Positions 51,971 to 57,411 of a DNA stretch of 64,000 bases are shown here, one piece after another. Numbering within the stretch: position 1 is the stretch's first letter; every line of letters begins with the position of its first letter. Source of the DNA: an uncultured delta proteobacterium (GTDB lineage: Bacteria > Desulfobacterota > Syntrophia > Syntrophales > Smithellaceae); the NCBI GenBank assembly GCA_963851005.1, contig CAWKNI010000007.1, forward strand, positions 1,630,904 through 1,694,903, in the 5' to 3' direction. A program made the translations under genes and the position numbers. Below the pieces are notes generated by a model, which saw only the letters and a program-made list of their open reading frames with translations, did no database searches and had not been told where the DNA came from.

Positions 51971-52091
51971 GGGTGCTACTCCGAAAGAAATTTTTTCTTG
52001 TCCTGCGCCCCTTTCACCTTGTTCCCTGCTCATTATATTCAAAAATTTATCTTGCTAAATATATAAAAACTTATATAATTGACGCGTGACT

Positions 52092-52406
52092 ATGAAATTA
52101 TTAAAATTTGTCGGCTCTAGTTTGGATGATCTACGGGATTTCCCGGAAGAAGCACGTCGTGCTACAGGTTTTGAACTTCGTGCCCTTCAGGATGGATTCG
52201 AACCACGAGATTGTAAGTTTGTTAGAGTTGTCGGGACTGGTGCAAAAGAAATCCGCATTCATGTTCTGGGCGAATGGCGGGTAATTTATGTCGCCAAGAT
52301 TCGTTATGCTATTTATGTATTACATGCATTTCAAAAGAAAACTCAAAAAACGAACCAATGTGATATCGAACTGGCTCGTAAAAGATACAAGCAAATTGGA
52401 GAGTAA
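52092..52406 (+). CDS. Type II toxin, RelE/HigB superfamily (Gp49-like)
   Basis: About 104 aa. LDDLRDFPEEARR...G.KEIRI...EWRVIYVAK....IYVLHAFQKKTQKT is the Gp49/HigB-type pattern. The toxin gene lies upstream of the HTH partner. Confidence 0.75.
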   Translation: MKLLKFVGSSLDDLRDFPEEARRATGFELRALQDGFEPRDCKFVRVVGTGAKEIRIHVLGEWRVIYVAKIRYAIYVLHAFQKKTQKTNQCDIELARKRYKQIGE

Positions 52407-52409
52407 TTT

Positions 52410-52694
52410 ATGAAAAAATCAATTACAGAATCATCGGGCAATGTATTTATTGATTTAGGATACTCACAGGATGAGGCCTCGATTTTGCAAATGCGAGCCG
52501 ATTTGATGGCTGATATCCGAAAATTTATTAAAACAAAAAAACTCACACAAGCCACAGCGGCAAAGATTTTCGGTGTCAGTCAATCGCGTGTTTCAGATTT
52601 AATTACAGGCAAATGGGAAAAGTTCAGCCTTGAAATGCTGATTTCGCTTGTAACCAAAACCGGCATGCATGTTAAGTTGAAGATAGCCGCATAG
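52410..52694 (+). CDS. XRE-family HTH antitoxin (HigA-like)
   Basis: 94 aa with LTQATAAKIFGVSQSRVSDLITGK as the HTH. It starts 3 nt after the toxin stop codon. Confidence 0.75.
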   Translation: MKKSITESSGNVFIDLGYSQDEASILQMRADLMADIRKFIKTKKLTQATAAKIFGVSQSRVSDLITGKWEKFSLEMLISLVTKTGMHVKLKIAA

Positions 52695-53396: not shown

Positions 53397-54731
53397 ATGA
53401 GCCCCCAAAATGAAGCTCACTCAAATATTGTACAGGGAAGACCAAGCAAAGAGTTATTCATTAATATGTTAATTCGTGATATCTCTTTAATTGATGCAAT
53501 AAGTGATTTAGTTGATAACTGTGTGGATGGAGCTGTTAACTTACGTGGGAAGAAGAAATTTACAGGTTTAGAAATTGATATTACTGTAAAAGACAATTGC
53601 TTCAAGATAAAAGATAATTGCGGTGGAATAGATAAAGAATTGGCACAGAACTATGCTTTTCGTTTCGGTAGACCGTCAAAAACCCCTCAAATAGATTATT
53701 CAGTTGGTCAATTTGGAATCGGCATGAAAAGAGCATTGTTTAAAATGGGTAAGCATTTTGAAATAAAATCCACTTCTGCTAAAACATCTTTTACTATTGA
53801 AATTCCCGTTAAAAAATGGAGTGAAAAAGAAAATGAGTGGGATTTTGAATTTAAAACTGTTACAGAAAAAAGTGCTTTATTATCAGAATGTGGAACAGAA
53901 ATAATAGTAACTTCATTAAAAGAGGATGTAATAGAAAGATTCAAGCAGCAAAATTTCCTATCTGAATTAAAAAACAAATTAGAGCTTCAGCATTTAATTA
54001 ATCTTTCAAAGGGATTAATAATAAAAATTAACAACTATTCTGTCAAGTCAAATCGATTGGAATTATACGATGGCAATAAATTTACAACTGCATATTGGGA
54101 AAAAAAATTTAAAATATATGGTCATACGGATGTTAAGATATATGCTGGGATAGGCACACAAAAGCTTGATAGGGGTGGATGGTATATTTTTTGTAATAAC
54201 AGACTTATACAAGGTCCTGAACAGACGGAGATTAGTGGATGGGGTGCAAAAACTCCAGTAAAAATACCTGAATATCATAGCCAGTTTAATGGATTTAGAG
54301 GTATCGTTCTTTTTGAATCAAAAGAACCATCCTTTTTGCCATGGAACACCTCAAAAACCAGCGTGGATATTGATTCGCAATTATATCAGAATGTAAAACA
54401 TGAAATGATTTGTCTAATGAGGCCTGTAATTGATTTTCTTAATGAAGTCCACAAGGAGAGCACGGCATTTCATAATAAGAAATTAGCAGATAAATATTTG
54501 CAAAATGAAATAGATTCAGCCCCTTTAAAAAACTATATAGATGTTAAAACATCCTCGGTATTTTCAGCGCCATCTCAAAAACAAAAGACCAAAGAAAAAA
54601 ATGAAGTTAAAATAAGCTATCTTAGAAGCGAAGGCAAAGTTGAAAAGTTGAAAATATTCTTTAATGTCTCATCACCAAAACAAGTTGGAGAAAAAACATT
54701 TGATTATGTTTATGATCGGGAGTGCAAATAA
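53397..54731 (+). CDS. GHKL-superfamily ATPase (HATPase_c_3 / MORC-MutL-like)
   Basis: The Bergerat-fold boxes are an N-box DLVDNCVDGA, G1 KDNCGGI and G2 VGQFGIGMKRALF. The protein is 444 aa and the gene is AT-rich. Confidence 0.75.
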   Translation: MSPQNEAHSNIVQGRPSKELFINMLIRDISLIDAISDLVDNCVDGAVNLRGKKKFTGLEIDITVKDNCFKIKDNCGGIDKELAQNYAFRFGRPSKTPQIDYSVGQFGIGMKRALFKMGKHFEIKSTSAKTSFTIEIPVKKWSEKENEWDFEFKTVTEKSALLSECGTEIIVTSLKEDVIERFKQQNFLSELKNKLELQHLINLSKGLIIKINNYSVKSNRLELYDGNKFTTAYWEKKFKIYGHTDVKIYAGIGTQKLDRGGWYIFCNNRLIQGPEQTEISGWGAKTPVKIPEYHSQFNGFRGIVLFESKEPSFLPWNTSKTSVDIDSQLYQNVKHEMICLMRPVIDFLNEVHKESTAFHNKKLADKYLQNEIDSAPLKNYIDVKTSSVFSAPSQKQKTKEKNEVKISYLRSEGKVEKLKIFFNVSSPKQVGEKTFDYVYDRECK

Positions 54732-54733
54732 TA

Positions 54734-55717
54734 ATGACCACAAGTTACGACAGAATTAATTATAATCTACGCCCGGCTAAAACAATTGAACGCAAAATGC
54801 TATGTGAAGCATTCAGGAAATTATTAAATTTTTCTGATTTGACCAAGTATAGATATGTTGGGTTTGGCTCCACATTTTTTACAGATTTCTCCCTTATACA
54901 TAAATCTCTCGGATTAAATGATTTGATAAGTATCGAAAAAGAAATTAAAGACAAAAACAGGTTTAGATTCAATTGCCCTTATAAGTGTATTCGCTTGCTT
55001 TTTGGAGATGCAAATGACGTACTGCCCACGATTGGTTGGGCAAAGAAAATTATTCTTTGGCTTGATTACGATTATTCATTGAGAGAAAGCATGATTACTG
55101 ATGTCGGCACCTTTATATCGCGAGCACAAACAGGGAGCATTATATTATTAACGATGGATGTTAGCCCCGATAAATTGCCGAATAAACATGACGAAAAAAC
55201 AAGATACGAGCAATTAGAAGACCGAATTAATAAATCAAAAATACCAATTGATGTTGAAGAAAAGGATTTAGATAAAGAAAATTATCCGAGAGTTTGTTAT
55301 AATATAGTAAATAACGAAATTGATCAAGTTCTAGCAAGAAGAAACTGGGGACTTGGTAAAAAATACAAATTAAAATATAAGCAACTTTTTAATTTTTTAT
55401 ATAAAGATGGATCTTCTCCAATGCTAAGCATTGGTGGTATCGTTTATTCAAACAATGATGAGGATAAAATAAAGAAATGTAATTTTGAAGGATTAGCTTT
55501 TACTAAATGCAAAAAAGATAAATATGAACCCTATAAAATTGTTGTACCTATTCTTACTTTTGGAGAAATGCGTTATTTAGATAAAAATTTAACATTGCAT
55601 AGAATATCGAAATTAGGAAAAAATAAAAATTTAAAATTTCTATCAAAAGAAATGGTGGAAGAATATAGTAAAATACATAGATATTTTCCAAATTTTGTGG
55701 AAGCAGAAATGCATTAA
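54734..55717 (+). CDS. Uncharacterised 327-aa protein, middle gene of the ATPase-methylase operon
   Basis: The ATG lies 2 nt after the upstream stop codon (TAATAATG). No family is recognised. The motif series YVGFGS / ISIEKE / FGDANDV / LWLDYDY resembles a Rossmann/methyltransferase-like fold. Confidence 0.6.
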   Translation: MTTSYDRINYNLRPAKTIERKMLCEAFRKLLNFSDLTKYRYVGFGSTFFTDFSLIHKSLGLNDLISIEKEIKDKNRFRFNCPYKCIRLLFGDANDVLPTIGWAKKIILWLDYDYSLRESMITDVGTFISRAQTGSIILLTMDVSPDKLPNKHDEKTRYEQLEDRINKSKIPIDVEEKDLDKENYPRVCYNIVNNEIDQVLARRNWGLGKKYKLKYKQLFNFLYKDGSSPMLSIGGIVYSNNDEDKIKKCNFEGLAFTKCKKDKYEPYKIVVPILTFGEMRYLDKNLTLHRISKLGKNKNLKFLSKEMVEEYSKIHRYFPNFVEAEMH

Positions 55718-55721
55718 TAAG

Positions 55722-56909
55722 ATGACTAAAACAAGTAAACATAAAGTTATTGATTTGTTTTCTGGCGCTGGAGGTTTTGGTTTGGGATTCAAAATGTCCG
55801 GATATGATGTGTTTTTTTCTCTAGAAATAGATAAATGGGCAACAGATACATTGCTAGAAAATCAAGACGATGGGATGATAATACTTCAAGACGACATTAG
55901 AAAGTATAAAACAAAAAATGATATTTTAGATGTTTGTAAAAAAATTCCCGATATTATAATAGGTGGCCCACCTTGCCAAGGATTCAGTAATGCTGGGTCA
56001 TTTAAGCGAGACTCAAATGACCCAAGAAATTTGCTTTTTAAGGATTTTGCCAATTGGGTTCAAAACTTGGAGCCCACCGTTTTTATAATGGAGAATGTGA
56101 AAGGAATATTATCAAGATATAATTCAGAAGGTGTTAAGATGATTGAAGTGATAAAAGAAACATTTTCCGACATAGGATATAGTAATTTAAACATCTGGAC
56201 TTTAAATGCAGCAGAATATGGTGTTCCACAATTGAGAGAACGTGTATTTATTGTTGGGCACAAGAAAAATTTAACCATAGAAGCCCCGCTCAAAACACAT
56301 TATATAGATAAGAAAATAAAAGGCTTAAAAAAAGCGGTTACCGTTAAAGCAGCAATTTCTGATTTACCAAAAATCAATGCATCTGAAGGTCAAGAAGTCC
56401 AACGTTATGAGAAGAAGCCAGCATCTGAATATCAAGTTTGGGCAAGAGGAAATCAAAGAATGATATACAATCACATTGCTATGAAGCATACTAAGCGTAT
56501 TATTGAAAGATTTAGTCATATTAATATTGGAGAATCGGTTTCTCGTGTTTCCATAGAATATAAAGAACGAAAGAGAAATGGCAATGGCGAAATTTCCGAA
56601 CAGTCATATAATATGAATAATCGTAGGCTTGATCCTAATAAACCATCTTATACTATTCCAGCATCATTTTATTCTAGTTTTATTCATCCTAACCAAAACA
56701 GAAATATAACTGCAAGAGAAGCGGCGCGTTTACAATCTTTTCCTGATAAATATAGATTTATGGGGAAAAGGACTCTTATATCCTCTAAGTTATCAAAAAA
56801 AAATGGGCATTCTGATTACAACTGTTTATCTCAATATAATCAAATTGGTAATGCGGTCCCGCCTATTTTATCTAAAGTTATTGCCGAACATATAAGTTTG
56901 TTTCTATAG
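55722..56909 (+). CDS. dcm: DNA (cytosine-5)-methyltransferase
   Basis: Motif I DLFSGAGGFGLGF, IV GGPPCQGFS, VI ENVKG, VIII QLRERVFIVG, IX REAARLQSFPD and X GNAVPP. Confidence 0.92.
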   Translation: MTKTSKHKVIDLFSGAGGFGLGFKMSGYDVFFSLEIDKWATDTLLENQDDGMIILQDDIRKYKTKNDILDVCKKIPDIIIGGPPCQGFSNAGSFKRDSNDPRNLLFKDFANWVQNLEPTVFIMENVKGILSRYNSEGVKMIEVIKETFSDIGYSNLNIWTLNAAEYGVPQLRERVFIVGHKKNLTIEAPLKTHYIDKKIKGLKKAVTVKAAISDLPKINASEGQEVQRYEKKPASEYQVWARGNQRMIYNHIAMKHTKRIIERFSHINIGESVSRVSIEYKERKRNGNGEISEQSYNMNNRRLDPNKPSYTIPASFYSSFIHPNQNRNITAREAARLQSFPDKYRFMGKRTLISSKLSKKNGHSDYNCLSQYNQIGNAVPPILSKVIAEHISLFL

Positions 56910-57065
56910 AACTAAAACTTGGCATCAAATATTTTTTTAATAATCACAATCGACGAACCACGCAAGCTCTTGTCAGTAACTGGATTCCCTAGTCAAGCTA
57001 GGGAATGACAGGAATAAAAAGTTAATAGATGCCCAGTTGGCAGCCGGTGGAAAACTAGCACATGG

Positions 57066-57219: not shown

Positions 57220-57411
57220 ATGACAACAACTTCCGTAACAGAAAAAGATAAGAAAATGGCCCAGCGTTGTGTTGAATGTAAGGTATGCACACGCGCAAGA
57301 AAGAAGCAGCGAGGGTTCGCATACTGGTTTGTCAAGACTATCGAGCATGGCATATGCCCATACTGCGCGGCGTATGAAAGGGTTTACGGGAAGAAGGCCC
57401 ATGAGGCTTGA
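57220..57411 (+). CDS. Small Cys-rich (zinc-ribbon-like) protein
   Basis: An aggagg RBS lies 6 nt upstream. The 63-aa protein contains CVECKVC...CPYC. Confidence 0.5.
   Translation: MTTTSVTEKDKKMAQRCVECKVCTRARKKQRGFAYWFVKTIEHGICPYCAAYERVYGKKAHEA

Follow-up and report, generated by a model that had tools for sequence, protein, structure and literature searches.

A MORC-like ATPase and a PF20553 protein of predicted methyltransferase fold are encoded together beside DNA-modification genes

Introduction

From gene neighbourhoods, Iyer, Abhiman and Aravind (2008) predicted that GHKL+S5 "paraMORC" proteins act in restriction-modification operons (PMC2292703). In the portions of that paper considered here, these operons are laterally mobile and combine a GHKL+S5 ATPase whose ATP motifs are intact with a cytosine methylase and, in some cases, Vsr, the ATPase being predicted to manipulate DNA in a restriction-modification-like system, and the partners named are superfamily II helicases and restriction-endonuclease-fold, HNH, TIR or other predicted nucleases. 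Here we describe a cassette of three co-oriented open reading frames (ORFs) at 53.4-56.9 kb of a 64,000-nucleotide stretch of DNA from an uncultured delta proteobacterium (Smithellaceae; contig CAWKNI010000007.1, positions 1,630,904 to 1,694,903; hereafter the window), which encode an ATPase of this type, a protein of Pfam family PF20553 and a complete Dcm cytosine methyltransferase. The cassette and its relatives resemble the paraMORC operons in all of these respects, with both the GHKL+S5 ATPase and the linkage to a DNA methyltransferase present, but an endonuclease and a superfamily II helicase are absent, and the only constant partner of the ATPase is a protein of predicted methyltransferase fold. 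Neither such a partner nor a link to dnd genes is mentioned in the same portions of PMC2292703, and we liken the window ATPase to paraMORC at the level of type, without placing it in one paraMORC family.

Two other described arrangements invite comparison. Bellieny-Rabelo et al. (2021) reported a HATPase_c_3+HEF_HK / Response_reg_2 gene pair downstream of Dcm (PMC8011034), a trio that similarly combines Dcm, a paraMORC-like GHKL protein and a small alpha/beta partner of unknown role; however, that partner has a CheY-like receiver fold and that ATPase carries additional HEF_HK and HATPase_c domains, neither of which occurs in the window cassette. The restriction partners of DNA phosphorothioation (DndFGH, DndI, SspE and SspFGH) have been described as NTPase/nickase proteins or as proteins with Walker A and translocase-like features. 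Like them, the ATPase-PF20553 pair can be encoded beside or inside dnd modification clusters, but its domain content is different and it is found in Dcm and DISARM operons as well. Within the open-access literature we found no published description of the pair and no characterised PF20553 member or paper on PF20553, and MORC in combination with anti-phage activity returned eukaryotic MORC papers only. The window copy is itself an ordinary member of an existing, uncharacterised family; as far as we have found, what is new lies at the level of the system, namely a nuclease-free pair of a MORC-like ATPase and a methyltransferase-fold protein in Dcm, dnd and DISARM operons. We give an even chance to the reading that this pair is the effector arm of a modification-based immunity system, in which Dcm would provide the self-mark.

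The PF20553 protein has a predicted class I methyltransferase fold

The middle gene of the cassette (54734..55717, plus strand, with an ATG start at 54734 and an alternative GTG start at 54722 from the ORF reading) encodes a protein of 327 residues that matches PF20553 (Methyltransf_35, "putative O-methyltransferase") with 329.6 bits (E = 2.7e-98; the curated gathering cut-off is 27 bits), its residues 4-326 aligning with profile positions 2-309 of 309, a resemblance far too strong to be accidental. In length and architecture it is typical of the family, which comprises 2301 clusters at 50% identity (E<=1e-3) across bacteria and archaea; nearly all of the best 150 of these 2301 clusters are stand-alone proteins of 300-350 residues. 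An AlphaFold2 model built on 35 homologues (mean predicted local distance difference test [pLDDT] score 88.3, predicted template modelling [pTM] score 0.87) presents the protein as a single domain with strands at residues 40-43, 63-68, 86-90, 106-115, 135-142, 213-225 and 228-239. These form the seven-strand class I topology, strands 1-5 being parallel and followed by a strand 6/7 hairpin (213-239), with helices inserted between strands 5 and 6 and appended at the C terminus. When the model was searched against the PDB with Foldseek, all 50 matches listed were class I S-adenosylmethionine (SAM) methyltransferases or close relatives, including EgtD, Trm1, the COMT-like Rv0187, TrmR, COMT, NovO and CouO, at E values of 3e-6 to 1e-4 and template modelling (TM) scores of only 0.3-0.5, spread over the kinds of class I methyltransferase. 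Against BFVD, a viral library, the best E value was 1.6e-6, and most of the named matches were class I methyltransferases.

The model and the structure matches thus assign the middle protein a Rossmann-type class I SAM-methyltransferase fold, and a non-Rossmann fold was not obtained. This bears out the initial annotation, made from the sequence by eye, which had read a methyltransferase-like motif order in four strings, all of them present (RYVGFGSTF at residues 40-48, LISIEKE at 64-70, FGDANDVL at 90-97 and ILWLDYDYSL at 107-116), and had proposed the modelling and the structure search. In the model GFGS follows strand 1, E68 ends strand 2, FGD follows strand 3 and strand 4 contains WLDYD. 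We considered whether the "DxD" within WLDYD could signify a TOPRIM-like protein or a nuclease; this is ruled out by the seven-strand methyltransferase topology, the glycine loop and the strand-2 acid; it is also undercut by the loss of the D-x-D spacing in a second PF20553 subfamily (see below).

Sequence comparisons narrow the assignment from several sides. The middle protein is not a DNA amino-methyltransferase, because its motif IV reads W-L-D-Y-D, rather than (D/N/S)PP(Y/F/W), and it has no target-recognition domain; it gives no N6_N4_Mtase or MethyltransfD12 match at E<=10, and the absence of a (D/N)PPY signature had been correctly noted from the start. In the PDB, neither the single sequence nor a profile found a match at E<=10, and the protein has no close solved relative from which a function could be transferred. 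There is likewise no NCBIfam match at E<=1, which rules out the named NCBI dnd-associated and TcmP-type families that we had suspected. In a relaxed Pfam scan (E<=10) of 30 members of PF20553, no other methyltransferase family was matched.

The label "O-methyltransferase", carried by PF20553 and used also in NCBI annotation, appears to be a putative name, and it is highly improbable that these proteins are ordinary small-molecule or natural-product O-methyltransferases unrelated to DNA. Beyond the name, COMT-like and natural-product O-methyltransferases are indeed found among the Foldseek matches, and COMT, CCoAOMT and TrmR (Pfam Methyltransf_3/24) have the class I fold in common with the middle protein as well as, by eye, a similar layout, in which strand 3 is followed by G-x-S/A and strand 4 ends in an Asp. 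The structural similarity is nonetheless weak and extends over all kinds of class I enzyme, sequence matches to O-methyltransferase families are lacking in the relaxed scan, and the genomic context is unrelated: the linkage of PF20553 to a MORC-like ATPase and DNA-modification genes is strict, and the family has no recurring biosynthetic neighbours over the 80 loci described below. In COMT-type enzymes a catalytic Lys lies three residues after the strand-4 Asp, whereas no conserved Lys is seen, by eye, at that distance after D111.

Conservation of the predicted cofactor pocket

Conservation was assessed in 35 homologues with 41-80% identity to the window protein, and in an alignment spanning two deep PF20553 subfamilies that are ~20% identical. 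Invariant in the 35 homologues are Y41, G43, D51, F52, H56, S66, I67, E68, N80, P82, L97, W109, L110, D111, Y112, D123, G134 and S135, with G45, S46 and D113 kept in at least 90%; in the C-terminal half, Y223, D225, M230, G234, G235, I269, P272, T275, E278, Y311, P319 and E323 are invariant. Across both subfamilies, Y10, R13, K16, R20, Y41, D51, E68, N80, W109, D111, Y223, D225, M230, P272, E278 and P319 are invariant, and G45, S66, L110, Y112, Y311, Y315 and R316 nearly so, whereas G43, D113 (shifted by one position, giving WLDYAD in subfamily 2) and Y114 vary.

These residues fall into motifs distributed along the gene (all plus strand). The motif I region, Y39-R-Y41-V-G43-F-G45-S46 (54848..54871), comprises strand 1 and the glycine loop; motif II, L-I-S66-I-E68 (54923..54937), ends strand 2 with its acid; and the motif IV region, I107-L-W109-L-D111-Y112-D113 (55052..55072), lies within strand 4. 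Upstream of these lies an N-terminal basic motif, Y10-x-L-R13-P-x-K16-x-x-E-R20-K-M (54761..54799), a putative lid or substrate-binding (phosphate-binding) element, and downstream are the strand-6 motif Q217-L-F-N-F-x-Y223-x-D225 (55382..55408) and the C-terminal motif Y311...Y315-R316-Y-F-P319-x-F-x-E323 (55664..55702). Of the residues initially singled out, then, VGFGS, SIE and WLDYD proved to be conserved, and the glycine loop, SIE and WLDY persist even between the two subfamilies; at that depth FGDANDVL is lost, and DYDY varies at its second Asp and second Tyr. It was wrong to say that motifs are lacking in the C-terminal half, as QLFNFxYxD, GG234-235, I269/P272/T275/E278 and Y311/YRYFP/E323 show complete or almost complete conservation. 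Nor is the lysine richness of that half a family trait: lysine makes up 15% of it in the window protein versus a homologue mean of 8.8% (range 3-19%), which reflects the composition of an AT-rich gene and not PF20553.

Read against the established class I methyltransferase motifs I, II and IV, the predicted cofactor pocket appears to be kept, with G45 in the glycine loop, the acid E68 closing strand 2 and D111 in motif IV, and the conserved polar residues R13, K16, R20, D51, N80, Y112, Y223, D225 and E278 are predicted to surround it. Because these cofactor-pocket residues are conserved across subfamilies only ~20% identical, the SAM pocket is probably intact, with SAM binding, and probably also catalysis, retained. 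The suggestion that the fold is degenerate does not sit with this pattern or with a family of 2301 clusters. It is correspondingly very unlikely that the protein is a pseudo-methyltransferase that has lost SAM chemistry and serves the ATPase only as a subunit for DNA binding or scaffolding. Pseudo-enzymes usually lose exactly the residues of the cofactor pocket, and in PF20553 G45 is near-invariant and E68 and D111 are invariant between the subfamilies; a loss of chemistry would, for its part, fit with the lack of a DPPY, PCQ or COMT-type Asp/Asp/Asn plus Lys motif and with the failure of any other Pfam methyltransferase family to match even at E<=10.

The partner ATPase

The upstream gene (53397..54731, plus strand) encodes a MORC/MutL-type ATPase of 444 residues with GHKL and S5 (transducer) domains, identified by Pfam (HATPase_c_3, E = 1.5e-11), motifs and an AlphaFold2 model (pLDDT 85.5). 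Its Bergerat motifs are invariant (D37/D40/N41/D44, D73-N-C-G-G77, G104xFG107xG109 and GT166-167), and an NTxK320 loop corresponds to the QTK loop found in GyrB and MutL. Foldseek ranks the DNA-bound MORC2 ATPase first (9cdj, E = 1.6e-13), ahead of Hsp90/TRAP1, the MutL N-terminal domain, MORC3 and the ATPase domains of type II topoisomerases. The protein is therefore a clamp-type GHKL+S5 ATPase with intact ATP motifs. A hidden nuclease in it is ruled out, since the structure search returns GHKL+S5 relatives only, over the whole length; Pfam likewise detects no nuclease or helicase domain in the ATPase, the PF20553 protein or Dcm.

We note that the S5-like domain, at residues 261-302, carries the invariant motifs GGWYxFCNxR, GW and YHxQxxRxRG. 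Within these, C266/N267/R269 and Y293/H294 are invariant; the motifs could form a metal-, DNA- or partner-binding site.

Gene neighbourhoods of the ATPase-PF20553 pair

In a context survey, one genome per species was scanned, giving 184 relatives, of which 80 loci were kept, and neighbours were classified by phmmer and jackhmmer with Pfam-annotated seeds. Wherever upstream sequence is available (79 loci), the gene immediately preceding PF20553 encodes an ATPase homologue, and in all 79 the two genes are on the same strand and abut or overlap. Because of this arrangement, the ATPase and the PF20553 protein very probably form a complex, in line with the early proposal that the middle protein is a subunit working with the GHKL ATPase. 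All annotated clusters of neighbours (at least three members) over the 80 loci are DNA-modification or mismatch-repair genes.

The commonest arrangement is Dcm-linked (40 of the 80 loci), with Dcm mostly within +/-60 bp of the pair and always within 170 bp, so that a place beside a complete Dcm, thought unusual when the cassette was first read, is the usual one; it recurs also in the second subfamily and in a filamentous phage. Two architectures are seen. One, shared with the window, is GHKL-PF20553-Dcm, and its Dcm proteins are orthologues at E ~1e-130; in the other, [HhH-GPD]-Dcm-GHKL-PF20553, Dcm belongs to a different family. The Dcm-linked loci often include Vsr or an HhH-GPD glycosylase, and apart from these optional genes there is no fourth conserved gene. 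In the dnd-linked loci (30 of 80), the pair lies beside or between phosphorothioation genes, mostly within ~150 bp, and the accompanying genes are DndA/IscS, DndB, DndC, DndD, and DndE or a DndE-AAA fusion. The remaining 10 loci are unclassified, several of them being cut contigs and one having a Dcm fragment. Some further features of the dnd-linked loci are worth recording: a DndE fused to a P-loop/AAA NTPase (~495-545 residues), whose ORF overlaps the start of the ATPase gene (locus L018, 3002-4633, and ten similar loci); a recurrent neighbour of ~155 residues without a Pfam match (L013, 6986-7453, and eight similar loci); and, in Paenibacillus, a SIR2_2 protein directly upstream of the pair (L070, 3378-4649).

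These associations raise the question of whether the pair is an accessory to modification, which would help to target, maintain or regulate Dcm, Dnd or DrmMI, for example by methylating the enzyme or DNA, or would support the repair of damage arising from modification, in the way that MutL stimulates Vsr in very-short-patch repair. We consider this quite unlikely. The MutL/MORC-like character of the ATPase, the Vsr or G:T-type HhH-GPD glycosylase at many Dcm-linked loci and the position of the pair between dnd modification genes in some loci are all as expected of such an accessory, but the window cassette and many others contain neither Vsr nor a glycosylase, and it is well known that solitary Dcm and dnd clusters function without an ATPase-PF20553 pair. 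Many orphan modification modules have been reported (PMC8092258). Moreover, pairs that stand alone would be purposeless as accessories, and travel on a phage as a mobile unit suits a defence or addiction module better.

About five of the 80 pairs do stand alone, with no modification gene within 6 kb (L038, L039, L044, L057 and L060); they include a cyanobacterial clade adjoining glmS and one pair by an integrase and Mrr. Such loci would be expected if the pair were an autonomous defence or abortive-infection module for which the modification mark is not protective, as would the occurrence of the pair with three unrelated modification chemistries and the interspersion of partner types in PF20553 clustering. 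The pair may in that case be a guard that detects when a phage interferes with SAM or the DNA-modification machinery and is only co-transcribed with modification systems, for which PrrC, embedded in a type I restriction-modification locus, offers a parallel. We nevertheless regard full autonomy as unlikely: 70 of the 80 pairs share an operon with modification genes, and the reading frames often overlap; the trio of Dcm, GHKL and PF20553 persists between subfamilies that are only ~20% identical, and a Dcm accompanied by the pair without an endonuclease leaves a guard nothing to guard.

The interspersion also bears on how the mark might be perceived. Clades specific for one partner would point to a reader of the modification, and these are ruled out, since Dcm-linked and dnd-linked proteins are interspersed in the clustering. 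The closest Dcm-linked and dnd-linked PF20553 proteins are 57% identical, and the window protein is less close than this to most of the Dcm-linked ones.

A second subfamily, and copies on phage and plasmids

The second deep subfamily, ~20% identical to the window protein, was first met as a tandem copy in locus L061, and it too occurs in Dcm-GHKL-PF20553 operons (L061, 7052-9719; L083, 4377-8143; L085, 4464-8008). L061 carries both subfamilies in tandem, and the second ATPase is split there into three ORFs, through a frameshift or an assembly error. The obligate gene order, with an ATPase gene immediately before PF20553 and abutting or overlapping it, extends to this subfamily and to the phage PfAC20 and Microvirga plasmid copies.

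Several copies lie on mobile DNA. The genome of the Pseudomonas filamentous phage PfAC20 (PP058144.1, 280-3711) opens with a cassette of ATPase, PF20553 and Dcm genes, placed in the accessory region where other Pf phages carry defence genes. The paper describing PfAC20 gives a PADLOC score of "incomplete RM system" for this cassette, with the cytosine methyltransferase only, which indicates that the pair is currently unrecognised. Similarly, with PADLOC-DB 2.0 no model matched the window ATPase or middle protein at E<=1, and the only matches in the cassette are to Dcm, by the generic MTase_II, DrmMII and DruM models. On plasmid pR24_2 of Microvirga terrae (NZ_CP102847.1, 1-12504), the pair is inside a DISARM operon with the order drmD, MmeI-like methylase, GHKL, PF20553, drmA, DUF1998; it lies between the MmeI/Eco57I-like methylase and drmA, the genes overlapping or abutting, and this is the single such case seen. 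On S. meliloti pSymA of strain KH46 (NZ_CP021824.1, 2767-13071), the ATPase and PF20553 genes are parted by an insertion-sequence-like insertion of ~3 kb with unannotated ORFs of 260 and 560 residues after the ATPase gene, and the PF20553 ORF is truncated to 253 residues; an intact Dcm and Vsr lie a few kilobases away. Decay of the pair with Dcm-Vsr left intact is the pattern expected of a restriction arm, and suggests such a role.

The window cassette has a GC content of 27-35% (positions 53400-57000) versus 38-47% on either flank, and it was probably acquired horizontally because of this difference. Both the middle protein and the ATPase match PHROG families of unknown function. The low GC content, these PHROG matches and the position in the accessory region of PfAC20 together establish that the cassette is laterally mobile.

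A possible effector arm of modification-based immunity

The only other gene of this mobile cassette, at 55722..56909 on the plus strand, encodes a complete C5 cytosine DNA methyltransferase (Dcm) of 395 residues, with matches to Pfam DNA_methylase (E = 1.1e-68), NCBIfam TIGR00675 (4.6e-57) and PADLOC MTase_II (1.5e-124) and with FSGAGG, GGPPCQGFS, ENV, QLRERVF and GNAVPP read directly from its translation. The mechanical ORF start is TTG 55695; public gene calls use ATG 55722, which is 5 nt past the stop codon of the middle gene. Because a complete Dcm is all that accompanies the pair, the three genes look like a restriction-modification-like or addiction unit. Methylation by Dcm would mark self DNA, and the ATPase and PF20553 protein together would be the restriction-like effector arm, which is the reading that we hold to be evenly balanced between true and false. 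By analogy with MORC2 and MutL, the ATPase dimer would clamp DNA in an ATP-dependent manner, and the methyltransferase-fold protein would be its stoichiometric partner, a catalytic or licensing subunit. Because no nuclease domain is recognisable in either protein, the effect on foreign DNA could be a SAM-dependent modification of unmarked DNA or of protein on it, or an ATP-driven entrapment gated by SAM binding; we favour a SAM-dependent catalytic or licensing role of the PF20553 subunit on unmarked DNA. Direct reading of the mark by the PF20553 protein is unlikely, because the pair serves three chemistries and the partner types are interspersed.

A bolder version, which we put forward tentatively and think somewhat doubtful, is that the pair is a widespread, hitherto unrecognised, nuclease-free "restriction" module, interchangeable among at least three marks and acting by SAM-dependent chemistry rather than by cleavage. 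The self-marks would be 5-methylcytosine, phosphorothioate and, in DISARM, the adenine methylation that an MmeI/Eco57I-type methylase should produce, and unmarked DNA would be subject either to aberrant or damaging methylation or to SAM-gated clamping and silencing.

Several considerations weigh against assigning an effector role to the pair. PF20553 has no solved structure and no PDB sequence match, and SAM binding is inferred from motif conservation. Searches of the ATPase and the PF20553 protein revealed no nuclease, helicase or DNA-recognition domain, which leaves the pair without an evident means of harming DNA. The association of one pair with 5-methylcytosine, phosphorothioate and N6-methyladenine is hard to reconcile with direct mark reading, and the stand-alone pairs fit an autonomous module at least as well. 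The absence of the pair from PADLOC-DB 2.0 shows that it is unrecognised, not that it acts in defence.

If the pair is an effector arm, it would constitute a common immunity module, represented by 2301 clusters and found in bacteria, archaea, a filamentous phage and plasmids, and one that current catalogues of defence systems miss, PADLOC-DB having no model for either protein. It would then also bear on how the many "orphan" Dcm and dnd clusters restrict foreign DNA, and on what bacterial MORC-like ATPases do. These ATPases are the presumed ancestors of the eukaryotic MORC silencers, and the nuclease-free module, if real, would parallel in prokaryotes the way in which MORC proteins silence foreign DNA. 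Should the pair be merely an accessory factor, the gain is modest, one more member of an uncharacterised Pfam family. The three-gene cassette, at 3.5 kb, is easily cloned.

Flanks of the cassette

The borders of the cassette are not marked by recognisable elements: there is no tRNA gene in the window that could serve as an island border, no integrase among the ORFs listed for 48-62 kb, and around the cassette only short flanking repeats at chance level, none a convincing border. In the higher-GC stretch just 3' of Dcm, an ORF of 63 residues (57220-57411) with CxxCxxC and CxxC cysteines has no Pfam match and may not be a real gene. An amidohydrolase gene flanks the cassette on one side. On the other, upstream, are a toxin-antitoxin pair (52086-52694), composed of a Gp49/HigB-like toxin (PF05973, E = 3e-24) and a helix-turn-helix antitoxin (HTH_37), and a SnoaL-like gene (SnoaL_2) that stands between this pair and the cassette. 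The toxin-antitoxin pair together with the low-GC cassette suggests a small accessory or defence islet.

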